Positions 5,353 to 20,089 of a stretch of 64,000 bases of DNA are shown here, piece by piece. A program made the position numbers and the translations under genes. Under the pieces are notes generated by a model. It saw only the letters and a program-made list of their open reading frames with translations, did not search any database and had not been told where the DNA came from. Source of the stretch: Phycisphaeraceae bacterium (lineage in GTDB: Bacteria; Planctomycetota; Phycisphaerae; Phycisphaerales; Phycisphaeraceae); the NCBI GenBank assembly GCA_040902585.1, contig JBBDXA010000231.1:903-64902 (forward strand), read 5' to 3'. Numbering within the stretch: the stretch's first letter is position 1; the number at the start of each line of letters is the position of its first letter.

Positions 5353-6693
5353 GTGCGCATGACAGAATTACCTGACAGCAATGCCCCGCCCGTCGCGCTG
5401 CGGCGCGAGCTTGGCGTGTTCGGCGCGATGATGATGGGCCTGGGCTCGATCGTGGGCACGGGTGTGTTCGTGAGCATCGGTGTGGCAGCCGGTGTCGCGG
5501 GACCGGCGGTGGTGCTGGCGATTGTGATCGCCGCGCTGGTGGCGATGTGCAACGCATTCAGCAGCGCCCAACTGGCCGCCAGGCACGCCGTCAGTGGCGG
5601 CACCTACGAGTACGGTTATATCTACCTTCACCCCGCGCTGGGCTTCACCGCCGGCTGGATGTTCCTGTGCGCCAAGAGTGCTTCTGCCGCCACCGCCGCT
5701 CTGGGTTTCGCTGGCTACCTGCTTCACACCATCAACGGCGGTGACCAGCGCTGGCTGGTGCCCCTGGCACTGGTGACCTGCGTGTTGCTGTCGCTGATTG
5801 TCCTGAGCGGCATCCGGCGATCCAACCTGACCAACATCATCATCGTCTCCATCACGCTCACCACCTTGGCTGTATTCGTGCTGGCCGGACTACCGTTGCT
5901 GCTGCGCAACGGCACCGCCCGGCTCACGCCGTTCTTCGCGCCCGGTGATGCCGCAGGTGCTGGCGGCATTCAGGGCCTGCTTTACGCCACAGCGTTGATG
6001 TTCGTCGCTTACACGGGCTACGGCCGAATCGCCACACTTGGCGAAGAGGTGCGCGATCCTCACCGAACCATTCCCAAAGCAATCGTGCTGACCTTGGTCG
6101 TGTCCGCCGCGCTCTATATCGCCGTCGGTGTGGTGGCGATTGCAGCGGTCGGCGCGGGACCGCTGAGTGAGGCCACGGAAAACAGGGCCGCGCCGCTGGA
6201 GATCGTGTCGCGCCAGTTCGACATGCCAGGCGTCCACTGGCTGGTGGCGATCGGAGCGATGACCGCGATGCTCGGCGTGCTGCTGAATCTGATCCTGGGC
6301 CTGTCACGCGTGGTGCTGGCGATGGGCCGGCGCAACGACCTGCCCGCCGCCACCGCAAAGCTGAACGCCAGCAACACCACGCCTTACGTCGCCGTCATTG
6401 TCGTCGGCGTGATCGTCACCGGCCTGGCCGCCATCGGCAGCGTCAAAACCACCTGGGCCTTCAGCGCGTTCACCGTGCTCATTTACTACGCCATCACGAA
6501 TCTCGCCGCGCTGCGGCTCAAGAAGGTAGACCGCCTCTACTCGCCGATCTTCGCTTGGTGCGGACTCCTGGCGCGCCTGTTCCTGGCCTTCTGGGTCGAT
6601 TGGCAAATCTGGCTGACGGGCCTGGGCCTGATCGCGCTGGGGCTGCTGTGGCACCTCATTCGCCACCGACGCATGGGCGGCGTGAGGGAGTGA
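5353..6693 (+). CDS. APC-superfamily amino acid permease
   Basis: 446 aa, about 12 hydrophobic segments. GVFGAMMMGLGSIVGTGVFVS N-terminal signature. Confidence 0.9.
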   Translation: MRMTELPDSNAPPVALRRELGVFGAMMMGLGSIVGTGVFVSIGVAAGVAGPAVVLAIVIAALVAMCNAFSSAQLAARHAVSGGTYEYGYIYLHPALGFTAGWMFLCAKSASAATAALGFAGYLLHTINGGDQRWLVPLALVTCVLLSLIVLSGIRRSNLTNIIIVSITLTTLAVFVLAGLPLLLRNGTARLTPFFAPGDAAGAGGIQGLLYATALMFVAYTGYGRIATLGEEVRDPHRTIPKAIVLTLVVSAALYIAVGVVAIAAVGAGPLSEATENRAAPLEIVSRQFDMPGVHWLVAIGAMTAMLGVLLNLILGLSRVVLAMGRRNDLPAATAKLNASNTTPYVAVIVVGVIVTGLAAIGSVKTTWAFSAFTVLIYYAITNLAALRLKKVDRLYSPIFAWCGLLARLFLAFWVDWQIWLTGLGLIALGLLWHLIRHRRMGGVRE

Positions 6694-6746
6694 TGAAATA
6701 AGCCATAGGTCGAACTGACCTGGGCGGCTGATCAAACCCGACGCGA

Positions 6747-8198
6747 TCAATGAGAATCCGACTGTGCGGTGAGGACCGGATCCTTCAATCGTTTCATTTG
6801 CTCTTCGATCCGCTGGCTCAGGTCGGCGATGACCTGCTTTACCTTTGCATCGTCCGAAGATATGAGATTCTTCCGCTCGTCGGAATCGTTCGCGAGATCG
6901 TAAAGTTCATCCCGTCCCGGATTGAGCAGGTCGCGCACGAGCTTCCATTTCGGTGTGCGGTACATTCGCATGTGGGTCCGCGTCTGGTGCTTCGTCGAGT
7001 ACTCGCCGTAAAGGTCATTGTCCCACGGTATCGACTTGCCTTTCAAGAGCGGCGTGAAATCGCGGCCACGAACGCCCAGCTCCCTAGGGACTTCGACGCC
7101 CGCCATCGCGCACACGCTCGGAAAGACGTCAAGAAAGGTGATCGTCTGATCGACGACCTGCCCCGCCCTGGTAACACCCGGCCAGCGGATGGCGGCGGGC
7201 ACGCGTATCGACATGTCAAACATATTCGGCCGCTGTACTGCCGGCACGTTCTTCGTTCCTTCCGGCAGCGCGTCCTTCTTGAGAATCCAGTGCCCGTTGC
7301 CCTTGTGCCAGATACCGTTGTGACCCATGTTGTAGCCGTGATCGCTGGTGAAGATCACGATGGTGTTTTCCGCCAGCTTCTGGTCTTCGAGGAATTTCAT
7401 CAGGCGGCCGACGTTCCGGTCCACGCCGTGTACTGAGGCCAGGTATTCGCGCGTCACGCGCTTGACTCGCTCAGTGTCGAGCCCTGGGTAGTCGGGATGC
7501 GGCGGCACGGGATCCAGCTTCTCGAACGGTGCCCAGTCCTCCGGGGCGACTGGCAACCAGGCGGCGTGCGGCGCGCGGTAGTGCAGGCTCAATAGGAACG
7601 GCTTGTCCTGCGGCCGGTTCCGGATGAATTCGATCGCATGATCAGTAAGGATGTCGGTCGTCAACCCGCTCAGCTTGGTCTGCTTGCCGTCCTTCTCAAG
7701 CGTCGGATCCTTGGGCGACCAGCCTCCGCCGCGGTGCCCCATGAAGTAGTTGAATCCGGTCGCCGTCGGGTGGTGGGCATCCGTCAGGCCCAAATGCCAC
7801 TTGCCGATCAGGCCGGTGTGATAGCCGGCTCGCTGGAGCAGCTCGTACCACGTGACGGTTGAAGGATCGAGCCCGTGCTTCGGTTCGACATTCGGATTAA
7901 GCCAATCATGGATCCCCAATTCACTTCCGTACTTGCTGGTTGCCAGCGACGCGCGGGAGGGGCTGCACACGGGCGTCGGTGTGAAGCAGTTCTTCAGGAC
8001 CGCGCTCTGGGTAAAGAGCCGATCGAGGTTCGGCGTTATCGCATGCGTATGGCCTTCCCATCGCCCCAGCGCCCAAGGCCCCTGGTCATCCGTCATGATG
8101 AACAGCACATGGGGACGGTCGGCACGCACGACCGCTGGCAAGGATAGACCAATGAGCCATGCAGTTATCATCAACAGCAAGCTGAGAGAGCGGGGCAT
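6747..8198 (-). CDS. Formylglycine-dependent sulfatase (arylsulfatase family), secreted
   Basis: Signal peptide, FIMTDDQG, and the CSPSRASLATSKYG (C-x-P-x-R) motif. Confidence 0.92.
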   Translation of the reverse strand: MPRSLSLLLMITAWLIGLSLPAVVRADRPHVLFIMTDDQGPWALGRWEGHTHAITPNLDRLFTQSAVLKNCFTPTPVCSPSRASLATSKYGSELGIHDWLNPNVEPKHGLDPSTVTWYELLQRAGYHTGLIGKWHLGLTDAHHPTATGFNYFMGHRGGGWSPKDPTLEKDGKQTKLSGLTTDILTDHAIEFIRNRPQDKPFLLSLHYRAPHAAWLPVAPEDWAPFEKLDPVPPHPDYPGLDTERVKRVTREYLASVHGVDRNVGRLMKFLEDQKLAENTIVIFTSDHGYNMGHNGIWHKGNGHWILKKDALPEGTKNVPAVQRPNMFDMSIRVPAAIRWPGVTRAGQVVDQTITFLDVFPSVCAMAGVEVPRELGVRGRDFTPLLKGKSIPWDNDLYGEYSTKHQTRTHMRMYRTPKWKLVRDLLNPGRDELYDLANDSDERKNLISSDDAKVKQVIADLSQRIEEQMKRLKDPVLTAQSDSH

Positions 8199-8308
8199 GA
8201 GTTGACCTCCTTGATTTCGCAGCCATCATCATACAGGCCGGTATGGTCCGCTGATACACTGATGGCCCGTTTGCTCACTGGGCTCAATGGTGGGCGGAGA
8301 ATTCTCAA

Positions 8309-9813
8309 ATGCAAAGCACAATAAAAATAGTTCGCATCGTGCTGACGGCGAGCGTGACCCTTTTCGCACCGGTGGCTGCCGGCGACACATGGATCGTCGA
8401 TACGCAGGACGAATGGTCCGCTGCGGCCGCGGAGATGGAAGGCATCGAGATCAGTGACGGCGTGATATCGCCCACCGGCAACAGCGCCACCTTCGCCAGC
8501 AAGGTGAAGCGTTTGAATGCAAAGCGCAAGATCGCTTCGCTCATGCTTGAACAGTCGCCGATCTGGCAGAACTGGGAGCCGATCGACAACCTCGGACCGG
8601 CGAACATGGAGGACGCGCCTGTGTTCCTCTCCATCAGGCCGGGCAACTACTGGGCGTTTGGACGCTACGGCAAGGGCGGCAAGGGCGGCAGGAACGCTCC
8701 GCCCTTCAAGGCGCAGCCCGCGAAGCTGAAGGGCTTCGACATCCCGCTGCTGACCACGCCCTGGCCCAACCAGTTCGACGCACCCGGTGACTCGAAAAGA
8801 ATCTGGGCGGCTACAACGCCTGGCAGAGCCGCGACATGGTCAACTGGGTGCATCACGGCCCCGTCACCGAGGCCTTCTCCCGCTGGGTGACCTCGGCTGA
8901 GCACAAGGATGGCAAGGTCTACATCTATTACGACTACCCCAACGACCAGGACCCGCACGTTTACATCGACGAAGATCTGACCGACGGCAAGCCCGGCAAG
9001 AACATGGGCCTGGCGGTGCGTGATCCATCGCACGGCTCCGACGCCGGCTTCATTCGCGACAAGGAGGGACGGTTCCACGTGATCATCGAGGACTGGAGCC
9101 CGATCAACGCCAGCCAGCGGTCGTGGGATTCACCGCTGGCGGGCCACGCGGTCAGCGACGATGGCGTGAAGGATTGGAAGTTCCTCGCTCCCGCTGTGGA
9201 CAATCGAACCAAGGACACCGGCAAGATCGCTACGTACAAGCACCCGCACTGGCTCCAGCATCCGGACTGGAAGACGAACATTGGCGAGTACCAAGTGCAC
9301 GAGCCTGAACAGGAAGCCTACGGCGACTGGGCCGCGATCTGTGTCGGCACGCAGTATTACCTCTTCGGCGACTACGATCCGGCCGGCGGCGGACACATGA
9401 GTGTCGGATGGTTCACCAGCTCCGACATCAACAAGCCTTTCAAATGGTGCGACAAGATCGGCAACGGCCACCCGGATCCTGACATCGGCTTCGCCGAAGG
9501 GCGCTTCTACCTGTTCACGCAGCAGGCAACGGACTACGTGAGCACCGGCCCGTGGGTCGAGAAGGTCGAGGTTCGCGTCGGCGTCGATACGGATGGCGAC
9601 GGCAAGCTCGACAAGTGGACCGACTGGGCGGAAGTGAAAGAGGCCTACCAGCACCACAAGACGCTCGCCAAGCACGTGGACAGGTCGCCGGCGAAGGTCG
9701 AAATGTTGGATCTGCCTGCCGGTCATGCCGTCGGATTCGAGCTGCGCCTCACCGACACGACAAAGAACAAATCGAAACCAATGATTGATCGCGTCACCAT
9801 CACCCTGGAATAG
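8309..9813 (+). pseudogene. Secreted five-bladed beta-propeller glycoside-hydrolase-like gene (GH43/GH117-like) split by a frameshift near 8790-8800
   Basis: ORF 8309..8890 reads sensibly up to TTPWPNQFDAPGD, then becomes low-complexity. The second frame is open from 8791 and reads LEKNLGGYNAWQSRDMVNWVHHGP before its first ATG (8836). The SRDMVNW blade motif straddles that ATG. An A4 run lies at 8795-8798. Confidence 0.6.
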
Positions 9814-9836
9814 ATTGCCACGAACATTCGATCTCT

Positions 9837-10100
9837 TTGTGTCTCGCTACTTCTGTTCATCGCCGTAGCTCCCTCCGACGTGCGCGACGATCGCGGCTGC
9901 GTCAGTATCTGTCGTTCGGCGCGGGCAGGCCCGTCGGTCACTGGGGCGGGCGGTTCATCTGGCAGCTCGCCGACGCTGAGCAGTTGAGGGTGTGTTGGAG
10001 GGTCACGCCCAATGCGGTGCCTCGTGAGGTGGAACAGAAGTTGATTCAATCATTCGTAGCGGCTTTTGGAAGACGACCGTTCGCGAATCTGACTGACTAG
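9837..10100 (+). pseudogene. Possible C-terminal remnant of a GIY-YIG-like nuclease-family gene
   Basis: TTG-start ORF. The tail [36 protein letters not shown] resembles the distal half of GIY-YIG domains. The N-terminal GIY part is missing. Weak call. Confidence 0.25.
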
Positions 10101-10339
10101 CCAGGGGGCACAATGCACACGGAGACTTGCCCGGCGTGGTCTACAACAACACGATCACCACACTGCGTCTCACATAGCGCCTGCCCGTTGTAAATGTGCT
10201 CGACCGCCGCGAACCGATTCGCGTAGGCTTGGCGTCCGTTGCGGTGTACGTGGAGCCATCCACCTTCATCGCGGGCGAGGTCGACGCTGATCGAGGTGAA
10301 GCGGGCCAACGTGGTGTTTGTAGGGCTGGAGCATCACAC

Positions 10340-10425
10340 CAAATACCAGTATTTGAATTCAAAACATTTTTGCAGCGGAGACGCCGGCTTGTGGTCGTGC
10401 AAATCTGCAAATTTGCACATTTGCA
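10340..10425. repeat. AT-rich cluster of palindromes
   Basis: Read from the sequence: CAAATAC-CA-GTATTTG, TTTGAATTCAAA, and a 28-bp near-palindrome TGCAAATCTGCAAATTTGCACATTTGCA with a perfect TGCAAATTTGCA core at 10406-10417. The cluster lies just outside the island terminator. Confidence 0.7.
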
Positions 10426-10471
10426 GAATCATCAGCGCCCATCGGTCACCGGCGGCTCGTTGATCCGGGCG

Positions 10472-10506
10472 AAAAAAACTGCCCCACGGGATCAGCCGCA
10501 GGGCAG
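10472..10506 (-). terminator. Intrinsic terminator closing the RT cassette
   Basis: Minus-strand RNA CUGCCCUGCGG-CUGAUC-CCGUGGGGCAG forms an 11-bp stem (including 2 G-U pairs) followed by UUUUUUU. It begins about 55 nt after the ATPase stop. Confidence 0.7.
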
Positions 10507-10559
10507 TCAATGAAACTCGTTCGACGCAGGGCTGCAATACCGCGTTGTCTTCTTCCGAC

Positions 10560-11540
10560 TCAAGCCGCCTGACGCTTCGCCTTCAACTCGCGCATCCGGC
10601 GATAAAGCGAATCGGACGACTTGCCTGTGAGACTTGACCACTGCCTTTCCCGCTCGGCCCTCTGCTTGCGATCGGGGAACCGATCCAGAAGGTCCGAGAC
10701 GAATTTCAGCTCGTGGTCTTTCGTATCCTGACGTGTGACTGCCAACACGGGCTCGTCGTTGACATGTTCGTCCAGCATGGAGAGCACACGGTCCTCCCAT
10801 GTCTGGCAGGTCCGGTGATGCCGGCTGAACCTGAACGATGCCAAAGCCCTGTCCAATGTGCGAAGGTCGAACCTCTTCCCGGATTCTGCGACCAGGTCGA
10901 GAACCTTGAAGCATTCGCGGGCGGTCAGCCCGTCCTTGCCTCGAAGGCATCTCGCGCGGGTCATGGCGAGAATCTCGCCGTCAGAGGGGTCGTAATGAAA
11001 TGGGAACAGACGGCTGGAAACGGCCTTCGCAATCTCATCATTGTCCCGCATTCTTCGATTTGAAATCACGATGATGCTGCCGGTGAACAGAAACTCCTCT
11101 CGGCCGTCCCTGGCTGTGGTGTAGGTCACGAGCCGGGGTTTGCCAAGATCGCCGCCACATGCTGCCAGAAGAACCTGACGCGCCTCAGGCTTGACGAGAA
11201 ACGTATGCACATCGTCAAGCAGGAAGACGCTGCTCGGGTTCGCCTTGAGCGCGTCGAAAAGTCCACGGGGAGTCATCTGCGAATTGCAGAGCACCCATTT
11301 TATTTTCAACTGCTTGAGGATACCGGTGACCGTATGGGTCTTCCCGGTTCCCGGCCTGCCGTGGATGAACAGCCCGTTGGAAAATCCCAAGGCGGCACTC
11401 TTCACGTGGTCGCACAGGAGTCCCAGCTTCTGGCCCAAGGTCATGAGGTAGTCGCGATCATCGACCGACAGCAGACGGTGTTTCAAATCCTTTGCGGTAA
11501 TGCTTAAAACGGTACAAACGAAACGAAAAAGTTGACTCAC
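10560..11540 (-). CDS. AAA+ ATPase (Orc1/Cdc6- or IstB/DnaC-like core) with a basic C-terminal tail
   Basis: GTG start with AAAGGA upstream. Walker A GRPGTGKTH, Walker B VFLLDDVH, sensor-1-like IIVISN, SSRL Arg. C-terminal GKSSDSLYRRMRELKAKR. Confidence 0.85.
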   Translation of the reverse strand: MSQLFRFVCTVLSITAKDLKHRLLSVDDRDYLMTLGQKLGLLCDHVKSAALGFSNGLFIHGRPGTGKTHTVTGILKQLKIKWVLCNSQMTPRGLFDALKANPSSVFLLDDVHTFLVKPEARQVLLAACGGDLGKPRLVTYTTARDGREEFLFTGSIIVISNRRMRDNDEIAKAVSSRLFPFHYDPSDGEILAMTRARCLRGKDGLTARECFKVLDLVAESGKRFDLRTLDRALASFRFSRHHRTCQTWEDRVLSMLDEHVNDEPVLAVTRQDTKDHELKFVSDLLDRFPDRKQRAERERQWSSLTGKSSDSLYRRMRELKAKRQAA

Positions 11541-11785
11541 AAACTATCCTTTCTGGCCGGAGTGAACCCCGGTCGGATAAGGGCCGACTTTGACAGTCGG
11601 CATTCACGCACCTGTAGTGCGAATCCAAATGGCCGATGGAGCCGTTGCATGAGTGCAGCGGGCCATCGCCAAAGGATGGGTAGCAACGCGGTATTGACTT
11701 GCCAAAGAACATCGAACTGAGTCACCAATATGGTGGCAATGAATCGCGGCGGTGTCAACAGAAACTTGAGCGTCGGAGATGAGGA
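11541..11785 (-). ncRNA. Hairpin-rich 245-nt spacer upstream of the ATPase gene (candidate structured leader or ncRNA)
   Basis: On minus-strand RNA: GCCGACU-GUCAA-AGUCGGC (7 bp), a GGCGAUGG...CCAUCGGCC nested helix, and CACCA-UAU-UGGUG. A TTGACA box lies at 11753-11758 (minus). No convincing ORF. Confidence 0.3.
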
Positions 11786-12103
11786 TCAAACCGCAATCAG
11801 CCTCCGCAGTTCCGCCAACTGGTTCATCATCGAACAAGCACCAGCCATCTCGCGTCGCAGTTGACGCACAGATGGACCAGGCACCTTCTGGCGCTTCAGT
11901 CCGTTGAGCGCCACCTTTGCCTTGCCGGCGGCAGTGCGCGGCCCGGTGCTTCGCGTCCACGGCCGGTGCTTCAGCGCCGTCTCGCGCAGTTTCTGGCGGC
12001 CTTCAGGCGTGACCTTGTTACGCCTGGGCTGCGGCTTCGTAGCGGCGGGAGCGCCGCGCGGGCTGATCAAGTTGGAGGCGGTCATAGTCATCCAAGTGGG
12101 CAC
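11786..12103 (-). CDS. Small basic protein with a duplicated motif
   Basis: 105 aa. The duplicated motif is TPEGRQKLRETALKH and TAAGKAKVALNGLKR. By recollection (not searched) it matches the widespread small-protein motif (T/S)GPRTxEGKAxSxxNAxKHG. The start is uncertain (M1/M5/M7). Confidence 0.55.
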   Translation of the reverse strand: MPTWMTMTASNLISPRGAPAATKPQPRRNKVTPEGRQKLRETALKHRPWTRSTGPRTAAGKAKVALNGLKRQKVPGPSVRQLRREMAGACSMMNQLAELRRLIAV

Positions 12104-12665
12104 CTTTGTTTACTGAAGTTTGTTTGGTGTCGGCCGAGTGCATCGAGACCCTCCCCTCGCCGTCAGCGTCGTCGTTGCCCTCACGGGAGTAGGCCACGTC
12201 CTGCTTCGCTGCGATGTTCTGCTGACCGACGTGGGTGACCTGGTGGATGATCGTCGTTTTGCGGGGCTCATCGCTGTTTCGATACTTCTTCAACGCCAGC
12301 GCCAGACGCCGGACTTCGCTGATCAGACGACAGGCGGTGCTGCCGTACGCCTGGGCGGCCAGCGCATTGACGGCTCGGGTGGTTTGCTCCAAGAGCTGGC
12401 CGATGATCAGGTCGGCCTGCGCGATCTGGCGAACGATCACTTCTTCGATGGGATCGTCGATGCCGCCGGCACGGTGAGCGAAGTCCTCCATGTATGCACC
12501 GATGGTGGTGGGGCTGACATGCTTTTCCAACTTGACCGCGCCGGCGACGATGCTTGGGATGACCGCCTTTCGCATCGTTGCGACGCGACGGTCCCAGAGA
12601 GGATCTTCCTGGTCGGCGTTACTGGCCGGGGCGATTGTTGCGGGTGTGTTGTTGTGTTCGGGCAT
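12018..12665 (-). CDS. Hypothetical helical protein (215 aa)
   Basis: AAGGAAG SD about 10 nt upstream of ATG 12665. Coding-like composition. The 3' end overlaps the next ORF by about 70-86 nt. Confidence 0.6.
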   Translation of the reverse strand: MPEHNNTPATIAPASNADQEDPLWDRRVATMRKAVIPSIVAGAVKLEKHVSPTTIGAYMEDFAHRAGGIDDPIEEVIVRQIAQADLIIGQLLEQTTRAVNALAAQAYGSTACRLISEVRRLALALKKYRNSDEPRKTTIIHQVTHVGQQNIAAKQDVAYSREGNDDADGEGRVSMHSADTKQTSVNKGAHLDDYDRLQLDQPARRSRRYEAAAQA

Positions 12666-12742
12666 CCATGCTTCCTTTCTGATTTGGCTTCATTCAACGA
12701 AGTCCTTTTCTATGAAACGATAGGACGACTACTTCCCGCGCA

Positions 12743-14098
12743 TCAGCGGGCGTCGGCGGTCGCGGCATTGAGTATCAGACGATGGTCGAGCTTCTCGGCC
12801 TCGCTCTTGCGAAGACGACGCCAGCGGCCGTATGCGGCGAACCAGGCGTTCATCAGCGTCTCCCGCGATGGAAGCTCATCGAAGCCGGCCGCCGCCGCCG
12901 TGGTGTACACACGATCGAGCACGGCTTCGCGAGTTTCATCGCGGTAGCAGGGGCCGAGATATTCCAGCCAGCCGCGCACCGCGGCATCGGCGGCAACCGG
13001 CGGACAAGGCTTCTCGTGCGCTTCGATGAAGCCGTCCTCCAAACTGCACCAGGCCCGCTCGGCGATCGTGAACCTCAGTTGCCTGCCTTGACACTGGAGG
13101 TGGTAACCGAGGTAAATCACCTCCTGCCCTTCGGCCACGCGGCAGATATTTGATTCCGCATTTCCCTTGAGTTTCAAACCCGCCGATGTGACGAGCTGAC
13201 TCAGCGTGTCGTAGGCCATGTGGGCCTGGTCAACTGATTCGCAAGGCACCAGCAGATCGTCGAGATAGCTGAAAAGGGGTAACTGAGAGAGCCGATGCTG
13301 CCACGGCCGAGTGATGTGGTGGTCGCGGAAGATATGGGCCAGCAGCGGCGACAAGGAACTGCCCTGACGGACGCCGCGTTTCTTGCCGGTGTGTGAAATC
13401 AGGTTCACAAACTCGACGACGTTCCCGGCGTCGGGCAGCCACGAACTCAGCGCCCGCATCAGACGGCTGTGAATGATCTGGTCGTAGAACGCTTTGATGT
13501 CCTCGACAATCCACACCCAGTGCCTCCTGCGCTTCGCCAGCGCCAGTACCGTCGCCAGCGCGTGCTGAGCACCGCGGCCAGGCCGGGCAAACGAAAACGG
13601 AGCCAGCATCGGATCGAGCACCGGCTGGATGATGAGCCTCACATCACCTGCGACAATCCGATCGGGGACCGTCTGAATCGTCAACGTCCGGGTTTCGATG
13701 CTGCCGGGACGCTTGGGGATCGGGCACAGGCGGGAAGGGCCGGGACGATAGGTTTTATCACGCACCGCTTTCGCCAGAGCGCGGGACATTGACCAACCCT
13801 CCTCAAGGGTCAGGTCAGAGGGACGCAGTCCATCGACACCGGCAGCGTTGCCACCGTCTGACAGAATGTGATCCAGTGAACATCGCATCATCCGGGCGTC
13901 AGCGATGCGGCGTTTGAGGAAGGGGCCGACACTCGGAAGCTGTCCTATCCGTGCTCCGAGAACATGCAGACGATGGACGGTCAGCAGCCGGCGATATCGG
14001 CCGTCATTCTGCAGCGCGGGATCGCTCTTGCCCTCAAGAAGCCGATTCAGTTGGAAATTGTGACATTCAGTCTCGGCGTACACGTTGTTTCCTCGCAT
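12743..14098 (-). CDS. Reverse transcriptase, group-II-intron-like (no En/D domain)
   Basis: Motifs in order: AAGVDGL; CPIPKRPGSIETRTLTIQTVPDRIV; SFARPGRGAQHAL; EDIKAFYDQIIHSRL; GVRQGSSLSPLLAHIF; FSYLDDLLV (YxDD); GLKLKGNAESNI; VIYLGYHL; thumb-like VRGWLEYLGPCY. Confidence 0.92.
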   Translation of the reverse strand: MRGNNVYAETECHNFQLNRLLEGKSDPALQNDGRYRRLLTVHRLHVLGARIGQLPSVGPFLKRRIADARMMRCSLDHILSDGGNAAGVDGLRPSDLTLEEGWSMSRALAKAVRDKTYRPGPSRLCPIPKRPGSIETRTLTIQTVPDRIVAGDVRLIIQPVLDPMLAPFSFARPGRGAQHALATVLALAKRRRHWVWIVEDIKAFYDQIIHSRLMRALSSWLPDAGNVVEFVNLISHTGKKRGVRQGSSLSPLLAHIFRDHHITRPWQHRLSQLPLFSYLDDLLVPCESVDQAHMAYDTLSQLVTSAGLKLKGNAESNICRVAEGQEVIYLGYHLQCQGRQLRFTIAERAWCSLEDGFIEAHEKPCPPVAADAAVRGWLEYLGPCYRDETREAVLDRVYTTAAAAGFDELPSRETLMNAWFAAYGRWRRLRKSEAEKLDHRLILNAATADAR

Positions 14099-14313
14099 CT
14101 TGGAAAGTGCCGAGCCGGAGATTATTCCGGCCCGGCTAAAGCTGGCCTTTCGCCAGAAATCGCAATGCTGGTCGGCGGAGCCGCCAGCGAACTACTCAGT
14201 CATTCCCTTATTCGTTTCGCATGAGGGGTATGTGTAGTCCGTTGACGTCTGATCCATACCGGCTCCTTATGGGGAGGGAGAGGACATGGACCCAGGCCTT
14301 ACGGCCGACCGTC
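14099..14313 (-). ncRNA. Hairpin-rich 215-nt leader immediately upstream of the RT (candidate RT-associated ncRNA)
   Basis: On minus-strand RNA: GGCC-GUAA-GGCC, GCUGGCGG-CUC-CGCCGACCAGC, CUGGC-GAAAG-GCCAG, and GCCGGGCCGGA-AUAAUC-UCCGGCUCGGC ending about 15 nt before the RT ATG. No ORF. Confidence 0.35.
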
Positions 14314-15795
14314 TCAGGTATATGTCACGTACCTCCTTTCTTTCGCTGTCTCAGGAAGGACAGACAAGGCATTCCCCTTCTGTTTCTTCTTCCTGTTCTT
14401 CCTTTGACCCGTTTGATGCGGGTCCTTATGCCGGGGTTGAATCCGGTTTCGGGAAGAAGAGGTGACCGGGATGCCGCCTATAAGGATGACAGCCCGTGAT
14501 GTACTGATCCTGTTTCCGGCGGCGGTTGCGCCCAACCGGTCATAAGGCCCGAAGGGCCGATGACCGTCATGGGCGGTCCCGCCGGTGGCGTCGATCAGGA
14601 CATCGGTGTTGACGCCTTGCCCGGCCACATAGCCGAGCGTTGTGATCTGGTGGAAATAAACGGTCCTGCCGGGGTTCTCTTCGCCGGGTTCGCTGCTGAC
14701 AAGATCTTCATGCCGGCTGCGCAACATCCAGTCAGGCAGACGCTGAAGAAGCTGGCGGCCGTGCTCGACGTTCTCGACCAGGACGGTGACTCCGGCGTCG
14801 TTGAGGGTGTATTTGTCCTGATCAAGCAGAAGGCCGGACCTTCTCAGCGTCGCGATGTCGCCGGACGCTGCCGCGATAGCGACCGAGGCGACGATGTCAT
14901 TGCGGTTGTCGTTGAGCCAGATGCCATCGCGTTTCTTTTCGCAGGCGTTGCCGGCGATCACACTGGGCTTGGTGCGGGGTTCCAGGCGATAGACAGGTGT
15001 TGGGGGTTCGGGATGGGCATGGACCTCGGGGTAGATCACAGGACCGGCCAAGCCTTCAATGATGAGGCCGCGGCGATGAGCAGGGCCGGCGGAGTTGTTA
15101 TGGATCGCATAGACACGAGTCGGCCCTTTGGTGGCCTGACAGATTTGAGTGATGGCGTGCCTGCCGGTGAACTCATGGGCGTTGACGAGGATGATGATCT
15201 CTGCGCCGTCAGGGTTGTAAGACTTGATGGCGGGTAGTGTGCCTACGACGACGCGAGCGGGCCTGTCAGCCTTGCCGGCGCGGAGGCCGATGTATTCATT
15301 CGCGTGATCCGGAAGCGCCCGCCACAAACCGCGTGCGTCATGAGTACGCATGGTGAGGATGAGCACGGCCGCGTTGGAGAACGTCCTGGCGATGTCGGCG
15401 ATCGTCTCGGCGGTCTGGAGACGGGGGACAATGATCTGTCCGCCGGGGTTGGCTTTGATGGCGTGAAAGAGATCGGGATCGACATCCGTGTGGAACGGAT
15501 CGGCGTCGCCGCGAAGGTGATACGGCCACTGCCGCTGGTCGTTGATGGTGACGTTGAAGCCAAGCTCATTGAGGACGGCGGCGGCGCGGGGGACGAGGCC
15601 GGGGCGGATGATGATCCGGTTGTCAATTCTCTTCTCGAAAAGAGAATCTTGCGTGAAGACTTCGCGCACGCCGTACTTGCCGCCGGGCTCAAACTCGCGA
15701 ACAGGAATCGTCAGCGACGACAACAGCGCGGAGTCGGCCGGGACGACGACGGCACCACTGTGATTGATCGTGATGGATGCTTTCTGTTTCTTCAT
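14314..15795 (-). CDS. Hypothetical 493-aa protein, alternating alpha/beta pattern (faintly SF2-helicase-like), no Walker A motif
   Basis: Long clean ORF with no GxxxxGK(S/T). VLVENVEHGRQLLQRLP and TTLGYVAGQGVNTDVLIDATGG resemble a helicase C-lobe only loosely. A paralog fragment lies at 53790-53970. Confidence 0.75.
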   Translation of the reverse strand: MKKQKASITINHSGAVVVPADSALLSSLTIPVREFEPGGKYGVREVFTQDSLFEKRIDNRIIIRPGLVPRAAAVLNELGFNVTINDQRQWPYHLRGDADPFHTDVDPDLFHAIKANPGGQIIVPRLQTAETIADIARTFSNAAVLILTMRTHDARGLWRALPDHANEYIGLRAGKADRPARVVVGTLPAIKSYNPDGAEIIILVNAHEFTGRHAITQICQATKGPTRVYAIHNNSAGPAHRRGLIIEGLAGPVIYPEVHAHPEPPTPVYRLEPRTKPSVIAGNACEKKRDGIWLNDNRNDIVASVAIAAASGDIATLRRSGLLLDQDKYTLNDAGVTVLVENVEHGRQLLQRLPDWMLRSRHEDLVSSEPGEENPGRTVYFHQITTLGYVAGQGVNTDVLIDATGGTAHDGHRPFGPYDRLGATAAGNRISTSRAVILIGGIPVTSSSRNRIQPRHKDPHQTGQRKNRKKKQKGNALSVLPETAKERRYVTYT

Positions 15796-15845
15796 AACGG
15801 CAATCGTGGTGAGCGTTCCTGTGCAAAGTCATTTGCCGCCTTGGG

Positions 15846-16772
15846 CTACGCTTTCCCTCCCGGCTGACGAGAAATCCGCCGGGGTTTACGCTTGCCGACC
15901 TCCGCGCTTTCAGTCTCCTGTTCCTGCTTCGGGCCGCGAAGATTCAGGACCTTCCGAGCGCGTTCAAGGTTCTTAGCGAGGCGATTCTTGACCATGGCGA
16001 TGCCGGATTCCATCGTCTCAACCGACTTGAGTGACTCCGCCATCTTGGAGACCATCGCGTCAGTGAACCGGTCGGGCTCGGCTTCATCGAGTTCATCGAA
16101 CACGGCTTTGACCCAGATCTCGACTTTGTTGCTGACGGAATTGGCGACGCGGGTCATGTCCTCGATGCCGGCGGCGGGAGACGACGGCGTCTTCGGCTTG
16201 CGACCGTTTCGGTGGGCCTTGGGGGCGGGAACGAATTTCTCGGAAATGCGGGCGGCCAGGTCGCGGACGGAGAGCGACTCCTTGAAGATGGCTTCGATGA
16301 GTTTGTTGCGATCACGTTTGCTCCGGACAACAGCCAGCTCAAGAAGATGCCCTCGTGTGATGCGCTCGCCGTTGGCCATCTCGCGATGACCAAGGGCTTT
16401 CATGTCCTCGCGCTTGAAGGTGACGGCGATGGTGCGCAGGGCATACAGACGGCTTTCCGAAACGCCGAGGTATTCGGCCAACTTCTTGACGGCGTTGCTC
16501 CCGTAGGCCACCTCTTCCTCAAGCACCTGAAGAACCAGTTTGCCCTGTTCCCATGTCACCGCAAGCATCGAGACGCTGCCCAGGCCTTCTAGATGGGTAA
16601 GTTTCTTGGCGACCTCTTTAAGGGGCTGGTCCATCTCGTTGAAGGCAGCCTCCCGCGCCGCGAGCACGTTGACGGCGTGCGAGGCGATTTTGTCGTTAAC
16701 AACACTGCCATCGACGACGGCTGCTTCATCGGTGCGAGTTTCAAGTTTGAGTGCGGGCATTGCGGACTCCAT
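15846..16772 (-). CDS. Hypothetical HTH-containing protein (308 aa), ParB/KorB-like HTH region only
   Basis: YGSNAVKKLAEYLGVSESRLYALRTIA and ITRGHLLELAVVRSKRDRNKLIEAIFKESLSVRDLAARI look like HTH segments. No GERRxR ParB box. Basic C-terminal tail. Confidence 0.7.
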   Translation of the reverse strand: MESAMPALKLETRTDEAAVVDGSVVNDKIASHAVNVLAAREAAFNEMDQPLKEVAKKLTHLEGLGSVSMLAVTWEQGKLVLQVLEEEVAYGSNAVKKLAEYLGVSESRLYALRTIAVTFKREDMKALGHREMANGERITRGHLLELAVVRSKRDRNKLIEAIFKESLSVRDLAARISEKFVPAPKAHRNGRKPKTPSSPAAGIEDMTRVANSVSNKVEIWVKAVFDELDEAEPDRFTDAMVSKMAESLKSVETMESGIAMVKNRLAKNLERARKVLNLRGPKQEQETESAEVGKRKPRRISRQPGGKA

Positions 16773-16863
16773 GAAAGGGTGGTCGGTTGTTCAAAAGTCT
16801 TTGGGGAAAGAGAATTTGCGGAGGCAGCTAAAAGCGGACTCCGACTTCCAATGAGATTCGGAT

Positions 16864-17103
16864 TTACTCTGTGCGAACAGGTTGGTGTTTGGCAGGGGCA
16901 ATTGATTCGCGGGCAGAAAGCCACGCGTTGATTTCATCCACCTTGAAGCGAATCGCGGGCCTGGGGCCATCGCTCAAGACCACCGGCTGGATTTCCGATG
17001 CACGCAACCACCGTCGCACCGAACTTGGATCGGCATCCAGCTGCTGCGCCAGCGTTTTCAGTGCGACGAACTGACGTGCGGCTTGTGTTTCGGATTCGTT
17101 CAT
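16864..17103 (-). CDS. AlpA/excisionase-family HTH DNA-binding protein
   Basis: 79 aa. LKTLAQQLDADPSSVRRWLRASEIQPVVL..IRFKVDEINAWL is the typical MerR-like excisionase HTH. Confidence 0.8.
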   Translation of the reverse strand: MNESETQAARQFVALKTLAQQLDADPSSVRRWLRASEIQPVVLSDGPRPAIRFKVDEINAWLSARESIAPAKHQPVRTE

Positions 17104-17223
17104 TGTGAGTGTCTCCGTGAATCAAGCAGTCAGCCTCGAATGCTGACTCTGCTGCAAATACCGATTGTCCAATTCGATCGAGCCGTAGATACAGCGCCAA
17201 TGCAGCGCATATAAAAAACTTGC

Positions 17224-17574
17224 CTAATTCATCCTTTGCGGACGCCGCGACTGCGGAATTCGGTAGCCGACTCTTCGCTTTCCTTCGAGTCCGTAGGGTT
17301 TGAGCTGAGGGAGAATGTGCGTCGTCAACGTGCTCTGTTCGATATAAATGTCTCGTTCGCGAAGTGCTTCAATAATCTGCTTGCCGGTCAGTCCCCGATG
17401 TGCCGGCACGCTGAGAAGTAGCTCATAAACGGTGGCGGCCCTTTGACTGAGCATGGGGAGATCCGCGGCGACACCGGGAGATTGTTCTCTGCCCTCTGCG
17501 GTCGGCTCAGCGGCCAAGTCGCTCTCCACTTTCGTCTCGGTTGTTGATCGTGACTCAGAATTGCGCTGGGGCAT
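17224..17574 (-). CDS. Winged-helix DNA-binding protein (116 aa)
   Basis: ORF 17224..17799 trimmed to MPQRNSE, 1 nt after the upstream stop. VYELLLSVPAHRGLTGKQIIEALRERDIYIEQSTLTTHILPQLKPYGL. Confidence 0.65.
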   Translation of the reverse strand: MPQRNSESRSTTETKVESDLAAEPTAEGREQSPGVAADLPMLSQRAATVYELLLSVPAHRGLTGKQIIEALRERDIYIEQSTLTTHILPQLKPYGLEGKRRVGYRIPQSRRPQRMN

Positions 17575-17575
17575 G

Positions 17576-17911
17576 TTATATGCCCTCCTTCGCAACACGC
17601 GCACTCGCCGCAGCAATCGCGCCATCACGCTGCGAGGCAGTGCGGGAGCGGGGAGCCTCCATCGCAGTCGTCGACGCCCCCTCGGCGAAATGTTCCTGAT
17701 CTGCCGAGGCGACCGCTTCAAAAAAATGAAAGTGGTCGTCTTCTGTGGTAAGCAGCTTGCCTCCGACGCGATACAGCTTGAGGTGAACGCGGCGACCACC
17801 GCGAGTCTTCAGACCCTTGCGGCCCCAGCGCCACAAAGCATTTGGACTTGGACACGGCGCAGGACACAACCGTGCCGCGCATGAAAGTTTGATGAGTTTT
17901 GTAGGGGTCAC
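17576..17911 (-). CDS. DUF1580-like HTH protein
   Basis: LIKLSCAARLCPAPCPSPNALWRWGRKGLKTRGGRRVHLKLYRVGGKLLTTEDDHFHFFE matches my recollection of the planctomycete DUF1580 pattern (xSxxTxWRW..G..L......GG...T). Proposed GTG start at 17911; start uncertain. Confidence 0.55.
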   Translation of the reverse strand: MTPTKLIKLSCAARLCPAPCPSPNALWRWGRKGLKTRGGRRVHLKLYRVGGKLLTTEDDHFHFFEAVASADQEHFAEGASTTAMEAPRSRTASQRDGAIAAASARVAKEGI

Positions 17912-18651
17912 TGAACTGCTCAGTGAGCCGCGCGAGATGGCAACATCAATAAAAAAACCCGGCACATCACTCGCGCAGCCGAACCGTAAGGCGTCAGTTC
18001 CACGGGGTTCGGCTCGCGGGATGTCCGGCCGCGAACAAGGCTTGAACTGATCTACTGCTGTAAGGATAGCGAAGGGACCAAGACAGTTCAACAGGTTTCA
18101 GCTTTTTCAATCACACCTTTTGGTTGTGATTCTCTCAAACCATCAACCGACCCTGCGAATGGCTTCGATGGCTTTGGCAATATTGGGTTCGGTGTAAACC
18201 TGAGTGGGCTTCAACGAACAACAGTAGGCTGACCGTCATCGCGGGCGTGCTAGACAACACCACCGCCGCCCGAATCGCTTGGCCATGATCAGCGGCCTTC
18301 CCGAAAGATCCTAGCCTGATTTCTTGAGATGGGAACTGACACGATTACACCGGAACGACCTGCAATGCAGCCATGTTGCTTGACCCGAATGTTGACCCTT
18401 ATTCGGGCAGTTTTCAGGCCAAAATCATCAATAATTCGGGTCAGCCGAATTCTCCGAAGTCACGCTCATTCCATTGCGCCGCCAACGGTTAAAGACATAC
18501 GATGAACTGACGCAGTCGCCCCGGTCGAGACCCTTTTTTCATTTGCAGGCCGTGCAAACGTTCATATCATCATATTTTTAAGCTAGTTGCGCGCCCAGTT
18601 GACAGGGAGGGGTATAAGCGGGTCTTTCGTTCAGCCCTTAAACACAGGGCT

Positions 18652-19683
18652 TTACGTATTGATGCGCAAAGGCATGCGATCTGGTTTGGGGAGCGCGATG
18701 AGGCGGTCTTCCGCTTCCTCCACGTTAATCACCCCCTGCGCGCAAGCGCGTAGGATTTGCTGAGCCGATTCCTGCTCCAGGACCTGATCGATCCGCCGCG
18801 CGATCCTGGCGCGCAGGCGACGAGCCAGGGCCTGCGCAGCGTCTTCGTGCCGTCCGTGTTCGGGTCTCTGCCGCGCGGCGAGCGTTTCGAGCGTGTGCCA
18901 CAGGCGATCGATGCCTTCGCCGCCGCGGGCGCTGAGCTGGAGAAACTCGGGGCCGGCGGTGCCGTCATGGGAGGGCGCATTCAGCGCGATGGCGGCGCGG
19001 ATGGTCGCGGCGGTGCGCGGGGTGCCGGGCAGGTCGGCCTTGTTAAGCACGATCATGTCGGCCCACTCGGCGATGCCGGCTTTGTCCCACTGCACGTCAT
19101 CGCCGGTCTCCGGCGATGACACGAGTACAAGCAGCCGGCACAGGCTGCGTGCGGCTATCTGGTCCTGGCCCGTGCCGATCGATTCCAGGAGGATCACGTC
19201 GAAGCCGAAGCGATCGAGAAGTTCGATCACATCGGCCGCCGCGCCGGCCACGCCGCCGCTGCTGTCGTCACCCGGGCGCGTGGAGATGCTGCGGATGAAG
19301 GGCGGGTCCGCGGCGCTGTTGGAGTCATCCGTCTGCATGCGCACGCGGTCGCCCAGCAGCGCCCCGCCGGTGCGCGCGCTGGAAGGATCGCACGCCAGCA
19401 CCGCGATGCGCTTGCCTATGTCGAGCACGTGGCGCAAGAGCGCGCCGATGAGCGTGCTCTTGCCCGCGCCGGCCGCGCCGGTGATGCCGATCGTGAGGGC
19501 GGGCGAGGTTGCCGGCGGAAGCTGCGCGAAGATCGCCGCCGCGTCCTGGCCTTCATCGATGCGGCTGATGAGGCGCGCCAAGGCGCGACGGTCGCGCCGC
19601 TGGAATGCCCGCGCGAGTGCGTCAGGTGCGCCGCGGGCGTCCATCGCCTCGGAGGCGTCAAGTTGAGCCGGTGTGTTCCTCAT
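18652..19683 (-). CDS. meaB: Methylmalonyl-CoA mutase-associated G3E GTPase (MeaB/ArgK)
   Basis: GITGAAGAGKSTL P-loop, LLESIGTGQ, VLNKAD. Overlaps the upstream B12-domain gene by 26 nt. Confidence 0.9.
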   Translation of the reverse strand: MRNTPAQLDASEAMDARGAPDALARAFQRRDRRALARLISRIDEGQDAAAIFAQLPPATSPALTIGITGAAGAGKSTLIGALLRHVLDIGKRIAVLACDPSSARTGGALLGDRVRMQTDDSNSAADPPFIRSISTRPGDDSSGGVAGAAADVIELLDRFGFDVILLESIGTGQDQIAARSLCRLLVLVSSPETGDDVQWDKAGIAEWADMIVLNKADLPGTPRTAATIRAAIALNAPSHDGTAGPEFLQLSARGGEGIDRLWHTLETLAARQRPEHGRHEDAAQALARRLRARIARRIDQVLEQESAQQILRACAQGVINVEEAEDRLIALPKPDRMPLRINT

Positions 19684-20089
19684 GACTGGCTCGGGTTTGC
19701 GCCAAGTCCGTGACGCGCTGAATGATTTCCTGCGCCGGTGTGCCGGGGCCGAAGACTGCCGCGACGCCCATGCGGTTCAGCTGGGGCACATCATCGTCCG
19801 GTATGCTCCCGCCGAGGATCAAGGGGATATCGTCGCAGCCCTCGGCCTTCATCGCCTCCAGCAACTTGGGCAGCAACGTCATGTGCGCGCCCGAAAGCAG
19901 GCTGACGCCGATGACGTCGGCATCCTCCTCCAGCGCGATGCGGGCGACGCCGCCGGGCGTGGGCCACAGGCCCGTGTAGATCACCTCCATGCCCGCGTCG
20001 CGCAGAATGCGGGCCACCACGCGGATGCCGCGGTCATGCCCATCCAACCCGAGCTTGGCCAGCACAACACGGATGCGATACTGTCTCAT
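19658..20089 (-). CDS. Acyl-CoA mutase cobalamin-binding small subunit
   Basis: Trimmed to MRQYRIRVV (AAGGAG SD upstream). LGLDGHDRG contains the DxHxxG B12 motif. Confidence 0.88.
   Translation of the reverse strand: MRQYRIRVVLAKLGLDGHDRGIRVVARILRDAGMEVIYTGLWPTPGGVARIALEEDADVIGVSLLSGAHMTLLPKLLEAMKAEGCDDIPLILGGSIPDDDVPQLNRMGVAAVFGPGTPAQEIIQRVTDLAQTRASHEEHTGST

Follow-up and report, generated by a model that had tools for sequence, protein, structure and literature searches.

A lineage-specific structured leader between a helicase-like gene and a reverse transcriptase gene of group-II-intron-like type in a Phycisphaeraceae bacterium

What is the role of the 215-nt spacer that separates a reverse transcriptase (RT) gene of a Phycisphaeraceae bacterium from the gene upstream of it? 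The DNA analysed here (the window) is a stretch of 64,000 nucleotides from contig JBBDXA010000231.1 of assembly GCA_040902585.1. The spacer, at 14099–14313 on the minus strand, lies between the end of a 493-aa open reading frame (ORF) at 14314 and an ATG-started RT ORF at 14098. A first-pass annotation had proposed that it was a structured leader serving as a cognate non-coding RNA (ncRNA) or as a template, by analogy with retrons, DRT2 and DRT9. The analysis described here indicated that it is likely a functional RNA element, and a template role was not supported. The interpretation that we prefer, tentatively and with somewhat less than even confidence, is that the spacer is a cis-acting structured intercistronic leader limiting RT expression, within a two-gene cassette of a helicase-like protein and an RT.

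The minus-strand RNA of the spacer folded with a minimum free energy (MFE) of −88.7 kcal/mol, against a mean of −70.1 (sd 4.6) for dinucleotide shuffles (z = −4.06), and only 1 of 200 such shuffles folded as well. Over the final 100 nt ahead of the RT, z was −4.36, against +0.38 in an RT-internal control. The centroid and MFE structures concurred, and both consisted of local domains and hairpins only, with no helix joining the leader ends and no repeats. The leader is thus a real, unusually stable RNA-type structure on the RT sense strand. The presence of a structured 215-nt leader directly upstream of the RT, exactly bounded by the two ORFs, was borne out, and all four of the stable hairpins proposed earlier, including a 9-bp one with one bulge (hp2), were found in the MFE structure. 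Two larger folded domains (14244–14313 and 14189–14240) came in addition to these hairpins. A 100-nt coding stretch in the 3′ part of the helicase-like gene (14483–14583) also gave z = −3.19. The parts of the cassette, all on the minus strand and listed in the direction of transcription, were as follows.

14314–15795 (−), partner gene P0002: ORF of 493 aa, predicted degenerate superfamily 2 (SF2) helicase-like protein
14244–14313 (−), leader domain 1 (MFE and centroid): includes hairpin 1 and a stem formed by a C/U-rich tract and the small ORF's AAGGAG and AUG
14295–14306 (−), hairpin 1 (hp1): GGCC/GUAA/GGCC, in the MFE structure
14192–14257 (−), candidate small ORF of 21 codons, from a script scan of the spacer and its translation: AAGGAG 5 nt before ATG
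14189–14240 (−), second larger folded domain (MFE and centroid)
14167–14188 (−), hairpin 2 (hp2): 9 bp with one bulged A, beginning 3 nt past the small-ORF stop
14142–14156 (−), hairpin 3 (hp3): 5-bp stem, GAAAG loop and UUUC in front, pair probability 0.97
14109–14136 (−), hairpin 4 (hp4): 11-bp GC-rich stem with a 6-nt loop, pair probability 0.99
14084–14108 (−), RT translation-initiation region (from the fold prediction), with a GAGG Shine-Dalgarno (SD) sequence at 14091–14094
12743–14083 (−), RT gene: probable GTG start, 446 codons (451 if ATG 14098 is used)

Of the two loops described earlier as GNRA-type, the one of hp1 was a true GNRA tetraloop, and that of hp3 proved to be a pentaloop which differed in the relative L049 (see below). 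Five RT homologues of 442–496 aa started with M, four of them with “MY”, which aligned to V6-Y7 of the ATG-started ORF, and a GAGG sequence was present 7 nt upstream of GTG 14083. Since the homologues begin with “MY” and GAGG precedes this GTG, the RT start is probably GTG 14083, and the leader would then be 230 nt long. The same GAGG (14091–14094) replaces the earlier impression that no good SD was visible. The last helix had been placed about 15 nt before the RT AUG; hp4 in fact ended 10 nt before ATG 14098, 25 nt before GTG 14083 and 178 nt past the upstream stop codon. The RT protein recorded for this contig, P0005 (348 aa), begins later still; it spans only 77% of the ORF that the homologues support and was probably called too short.

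After hp4, the tail sequence UUUCC was predicted to form a weak helix of 5 bp with GGAAA in the SD region; for the corresponding tail of L049 the prediction was an 8-bp helix with the region of the start codon. Further upstream, the SD and AUG of the small ORF were predicted to be sequestered in a stable stem of the MFE fold, and this ORF was in frame with the RT via one TAG.

Comparison of the leader with relatives relied on L049 (contig of P0007), the sole relative of more than 40% RT identity with upstream DNA (93 nt). The RTs of the window and L049 shared 199 of 442 residues (45%) and 51% of the nucleotides in aligned codons. Both hp3 and hp4 were recognisable upstream of the L049 RT, with order and spacing unchanged. 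The hp3 stem was identical, with a loop of 7 nt as against 5. In hp4 all 11 pairs were kept, with two double changes (C-G to U-A and A-U to C-G) and one wobble change, and three of the six loop bases differed. Over the hp3–hp4 stretch 39 of 51 aligned bases were shared (76%), and the maximum among 425 windows of 51 nt in the RT gene was 75%. All 32 stem cells of the window and L049 were paired, as against 13–45% in slid controls. When L001 (RT 37% identical), which has a hairpin analogous to hp4, was added, 45 of 45 cells were paired and 3 of the 11 hp4 pairs were double-changed. A G-U pair of hp4 was retained in L049, and a covariance model scored 95 bits on the sense strand vs 13 bits on the antisense strand, indicating that the RT-sense RNA is the relevant form. 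Sequence comparison thus argues that the 3′ module of hp3 and hp4 is under selection. A 10-mer of hp2 is also present before the RT of L001, in unchanged order with respect to the terminal hairpin; it was dropped as evidence, because 18 of 300 shuffles reached that length.

How could such a module act? In the cis-acting interpretation, the conserved core would be the hp3–hp4 module, ending 25 nt before the RT start, together with the pairing of the tail with the RT ribosome-binding region, and the module would keep RT output low or conditional relative to that of the helicase-like partner. It could do so if hp4 stopped or paused transcription as a U-poor, leaky terminator, or if the module occluded the initiation region; possibly, the module would act as an operator bound by the RT itself, as group II intron RTs bind at DIVa. 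That the module has a regulatory effect on transcription or translation, and that any protein binds it, we infer. The conservation of hp3–hp4, the predicted pairing of the tail with the SD and the clade-specific elements upstream of other RT genes (see below) together led us to read the leader as a cis control region.

For the operator option, the available text of PMC1874635 describes LtrA of the Ll.LtrB intron as binding DIVa, occluding its own SD and autoregulating its translation. The window is alike in having a stem-loop beside the ribosome-binding site of a group-II-type RT gene. It differs in having no intron (no Intron_gpII or D1–D4 match at E ≤ 1 over 10 kb), and its SD is 14 nt downstream of hp4 and not within it. 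As to a mobile group II intron, no ribozyme domains were matched by Rfam, and the RT scored 131.4 bits with TIGR04416, below the cutoff of 300. From its position and the ancestry of the RT, a DIVa-like operator role would be an attractive special case. Intrinsic terminators, attenuators and RAPP/RGPP leaders also resemble the window in placing a stable GC-rich hairpin just before a downstream cistron, and the window hairpin is unlike them in having no U-tract, no predicted switch to an alternative pairing and no arrest motif in the small ORF.

Several observations weigh against the cis-acting interpretation. As an intrinsic terminator, hp4 fitted in its GC-rich 11-bp stem, but T made up only 3 of the 8 bases following it, no terminator was called anywhere in the leader by the scan, and L049 was without a T-tract. 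When the small-ORF stop region was forced to be single-stranded, hp3 and hp4 retained pair probabilities of 0.96 and 0.99. A ribosome at that stop would therefore not melt hp3 or hp4 in silico, and a simple attenuator switch was not supported; a leader-peptide attenuator was rejected on the same ground. Compensatory changes were found in hp4 only, and this covariation rests on two or three sequences, with column shuffles as good in 134 of 500 cases for two sequences and in 24 of 500 for three. A comparison of the kind suggested in the first-pass annotation, by alignment and covariation, gave compensatory changes in hp4 and, with the covariance model, no counterpart of the module in other loci: the covariance model of the window and L049 (R1) was without a match upstream of the RT in 38 other loci. 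It reached hp4 of L001 only at E 1.4 (sense, filters off), with E 0.29 on the antisense strand, and its one extra match, in L003 at E 0.029, was on the opposite strand, some 4 kb away from the start of the RT. The comparison was moreover confined to the 3′ part of the leader, so that the 5′ 125 nt, including the small ORF, lay outside it. Finally, upstream structure was not universal in the RT family: of 32 loci, 11 had z below −2 over the 100 nt that precede the RT.

The RT family was diverse in its upstream regions. Among 24 cassettes, the spacer from the upstream stop codon to the RT start fell into the following classes, and fused relatives had no spacer at all.

21–37 nt: 9 of 24 cassettes
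25–145 nt: 5 of 24 cassettes, two of which depend on the start chosen
215–257 nt: 5 of 24 cassettes, the window among them
347–374 nt: 1 of 24 cassettes
503–509 nt: 4 of 24 cassettes (the G095 clade)

The window, L049, L001, L025, L045 and L046 each had a strong hairpin (−25 kcal/mol or lower in a 46-nt segment) that ended 18–33 nt before the RT start, and in each case it was more stable than every one of the six controls from inside the RT of that locus. The hairpins of L001 and L046 conformed to the consensus that the scan tool uses for terminators. Within the last 50 nt before the RT start, each of the four G095-clade loci had a hairpin with 7–8 consecutive T behind it; the terminator scan did not call it because its loop exceeds the limit of the tool.

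Other clades carried other elements. Before the RT of all five loci L026–L030 lay an upstream ORF (uORF) that is preceded by an SD, contains a conserved RGPP motif and starts at spacer positions 65–108. Two of these uORFs ended at a TGA one codon on, one at a TGA six codons past the motif, and two ran into the RT frame. RGPP is a strong ribosome-arrest motif according to the available text of PMC12992588, and in sequence the L026–L030 uORF looks like an arrest-peptide leader outside a Sec/YidC context. In the ten loci of L032–L043, a near-invariant block of ~50 nt, containing a 7-bp hairpin, lay 25–75 nt upstream of the RT start (L037:1272–1322). This block overlapped the Arg-rich end of the upstream ORF and was invariant at synonymous positions too, suggesting an RNA or DNA element that overlaps coding sequence.

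The 503–509-nt spacer of the G095 clade had 81.5% DNA identity vs 66.5% in the upstream gene, with mismatches spread almost evenly over the codon positions (20, 24 and 32); it folded with z = −3.56, and double changes were found in 16 of 150 alifold pairs. One frame of this spacer was open for 142–165 codons in 4/4 genomes, overlapped the upstream stop codon as ATGA and was, in 5 of 6 pairs, the frame richest in synonymous changes. On the strength of the open frame, the ATGA overlap and the synonymous pattern, a conserved ncRNA was rejected for this spacer, and its ORF is probably a third gene. The ORF at L017:7286–7765 (−), also present in L018, L022 and L023 of the same genus, matched no known family and showed near-neutral protein evolution; tblastn with the small ORF of the G095 clade gave no meaningful match in the window leader. 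The L017 RT (5495–7252, −) is a 586-aa protein whose C-terminus is extended by an RNase H-like part (PF00075, E 8.6e-4, below cutoff), and the window RT is without this extension. As judged from these sequences, the RT family appears to carry different, clade-specific control elements at the upstream position.

By its sequence, the window RT is classed as a free-standing group-II-intron-like enzyme, and not as a member of the retron, DRT2 or DRT9 families. It contained an RVT_1 domain (2e-17) with an intact YLDD active site, its alignment to the group II RT/maturase model TIGR04416 covered positions 4–334 of 353, and its best PDB sequence matches were group II intron RTs. With the NCBIfam models it scored 22.7 bits for Drt2 (cutoff 390) and 23.6 bits for Drt3a (cutoff 200). 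The PADLOC scores were 62.7 bits for RT_UG17, 52.2 bits for Drt9 and 122.2 bits for a generic RT model, and the retron-type model RT_VI gave E 3.5e-4 and 17.9 bits. The G2L4 RT, a DNA-repair RT of Pseudomonas aeruginosa, is likewise a free-standing group-II-intron-like RT without an intron. Compared by description only, G2L4 differs in its YIDD motif and in that the available account describes no partner or leader RNA, while for the window RT the motif is YLDD and the helicase-like neighbour looks obligatory.

The 493-aa partner gave no Pfam, PADLOC or NCBIfam match. In Foldseek, its AlphaFold model (predicted local distance difference test score, pLDDT, 65.9; alignment of 7 sequences) matched XPB, UvsW and RadD helicases (E 1e-13 to 1e-8). 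Inspection by eye showed no GKT at the Walker-A position in 7 of 7 aligned homologues, and the C-terminal ~50 residues were K/R-rich and predicted to be disordered. On this prediction and the Walker-A position, the partner is a degenerate SF2-helicase-like protein. No published description of it was found in the literature searched, which included section 12 of PMC8632793.

RT relatives, counted at E ≤ 1e-30, were present in 4 of 401 sampled genomes of the phylum and 4 of 401 of the class (own genome counted in both), and in 54 of 398 genomes of one planctomycete family. The class and phylum samples contained no RT relative closer than those from the other scans. A scan of genome contigs gave four loci with 31–37% RT identity, a metagenome scan gave 36 loci, of which L049 alone was close, and viral contigs gave five distant RT loci. 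Further protein relatives were P0006 (RT, 45% identical, contig of 14.3 kb) and P0027 (partner, 53% identical, contig of 3.2 kb). In 24 loci, the window included, of the 35 examined, a homologue of the partner preceded the RT in the same orientation; most of these loci are from Planctomycetota. At L085:1–700, in a genome of the class of the window, an RT homologue was without its first ~190 residues and had unrelated DNA upstream.

In three planctomycete genomes (loci L088, L089 and L090) the partner and RT were fused in proteins of 959–1000 aa with the RT motif YVDN or YADN. The partner was homologous to their N-terminal ~500 aa (E 6e-14 to 4e-6), and the window RT to the C-terminal half (E 1e-34 to 4e-33). 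The G2L5 class, in the available text of PMC2602772, has an N-terminal extension of ~500 aa and a change of DD to DN, and the available text of PMC4244168 describes it from Planctomyces and Blastopirellula. We infer that L088–L090 belong to this published class, to which they were matched by description and not by accession. G2L5 (Simon and Zimmerly 2008) is thus alike in phylum, and its N-terminal extension and RT halves are, via L088–L090, homologous to the two genes of the window; it is unlike in that the window halves are separate genes, with a structured spacer of 215–230 nt between them and a YLDD active site. By this homology, the window cassette appears to be related to G2L5, as a split form whose active site is intact.

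Could the leader instead be an RNA that works together with the proteins? One alternative is that the leader, or a processed part of it ending at hp4, is a stable partner ncRNA which binds the RT and the helicase-like protein and acts as scaffold and/or cDNA template. We consider this unlikely, though the most serious of the alternatives. The leader is directly upstream of the RT on its sense strand, is highly stable and has a conserved, covarying 3′ module, and hp4 or its terminator-like equivalents (L001, L046 and the G095 clade) could set the 3′ end of the RNA before the RT start. YLDD is kept in the split RT and the spacerless fused relatives have DN, and the upstream protein has a K/R-rich tail. 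The RTs of DRT10, DRT9 and DRT2 use upstream structured ncRNAs, as reported in the available text of PMC12632851, where a structured non-coding stretch of 140–250 nt is likewise found next to a stand-alone RT. The window RT, however, lies outside those families, far below the thresholds (Drt2, Drt3a, RT_UG17 and Drt9 scores above), its partner is helicase-like and not SLATT or similar, and the leader RNA is not conserved across its RT family: no RNA architecture is common to the family, 9 of 24 spacers are only 21–37 nt, and the G095 spacer holds an ORF. There was no Rfam match at E ≤ 1 over window 10000–20000, and at E ≤ 10 on 14040–14360 (321 nt) only sub-threshold matches (E 0.54 and 6.6) and no intron family were found; a long-range closing helix and repeats were lacking as well. 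Retron msr-msd is also unlike the window, whose RT is of group II type and not of the retron clade, and whose leader has no closing a1/a2 inverted repeats. The cognate ncRNA or template once drawn from retrons, DRT2 and DRT9 was therefore not supported, given a different RT family, no Rfam match and an element that is not family-wide. In a bolder form of this idea, to which we give a low probability, the leader would be the RNA subunit (scaffold, possibly template) of an uncharacterised planctomycete retro-system, with hp3/hp4 as an RT-binding handle inherited from DIVa; as part of the same joint and equally doubtful reading, this retro-system, an intact group-II-like RT with a degenerate XPB/UvsW-like protein, would be the split, active counterpart of G2L5.

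The remaining explanations assign less to the leader, or a different part of it. It is fairly improbable that hp4, with or without hp3, only terminates the helicase-like mRNA or stabilises its 3′ end, with the RT expressed independently and the rest of the spacer as filler. GC-rich stable hairpins are typical stabilisers of mRNA 3′ ends, and terminator-consensus hairpins at the equivalent place in L001 and L046, and the T-run in the G095 clade, would fit such an element. The 25 nt between hp4 and the RT start are, however, too short for a separate promoter, and the scan found no sigma-70-like site, planctomycete promoters being outside its coverage. Moreover, hp4 is 178 nt from the stop codon and not adjoining it, the T-tract is missing in the window and L049, and the conservation of hp3 would be left unexplained. 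That the 21-codon ORF (14192–14257) is translated, and that its peptide or its translation controls the RT, is very unlikely. Its AAGGAG, 5 nt before ATG, is by eye a clearer SD than those before most other starts compared, an SD-bearing uORF is conserved in the L026–L030 clade, and the ORF shares the reading frame of the RT, with one TAG in between; but its SD and AUG are sequestered, AAGGAG may be the mere complement of the C/U tract, there is no arrest-type motif, a ribosome at its stop leaves hp3/hp4 unchanged, and in L049 a stop closes the RT frame 12 nt ahead of its start. Least probable of all is a functionless GC-rich spacer in a horizontally acquired island that folds by chance. A GC-rich genome favours hairpins, the coding control in the upstream gene reached z = −3.19 and few sequences were compared, but only 1 of 200 shuffles was as stable, the hp3–hp4 stretch beat all 425 RT windows and all of the stem substitutions kept pairing. 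The leader was single-copy in the 5.7-Mb, 265-contig genome, with other matches of only 17–28 nt at E ≥ 0.1, and an origin as a repeat or mobile-element product was rejected on this basis.

The cassette is located within a ~10-kb stretch of lower GC (window about 8000–18500; 55–62% vs 65–69% in the flanks), bounded by a sulfatase gene and by MeaB/methylmalonyl-CoA mutase genes. This stretch also contains a P-loop ATPase gene with weak IetA-like matches (10560–11540), a weak DUF1016_N/PDC-S02-like gene (15846–16772) and unknown ORFs. No tRNA gene was found within window 1–30000.

Few bacterial RTs are as poorly understood as the free-standing group-II-intron-like ones, and the window RT is tied both to a conserved helicase-like partner and to the published, unexplained G2L5 fusions. 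The presence of clade-specific conserved elements before the RT start suggests tight control of RT dosage. Of the two findings, the more unusual is the cassette of an RT and a pseudo-helicase with its link to G2L5; the leader itself is a lineage-specific structured leader. Within it, the small RNA module at 14109–14156 is a concrete candidate for a cis operator or an RT-bound RNA. If the module is indeed bound by the RT, it would link the recognition of intron DIVa with the ncRNAs of domesticated RT systems.

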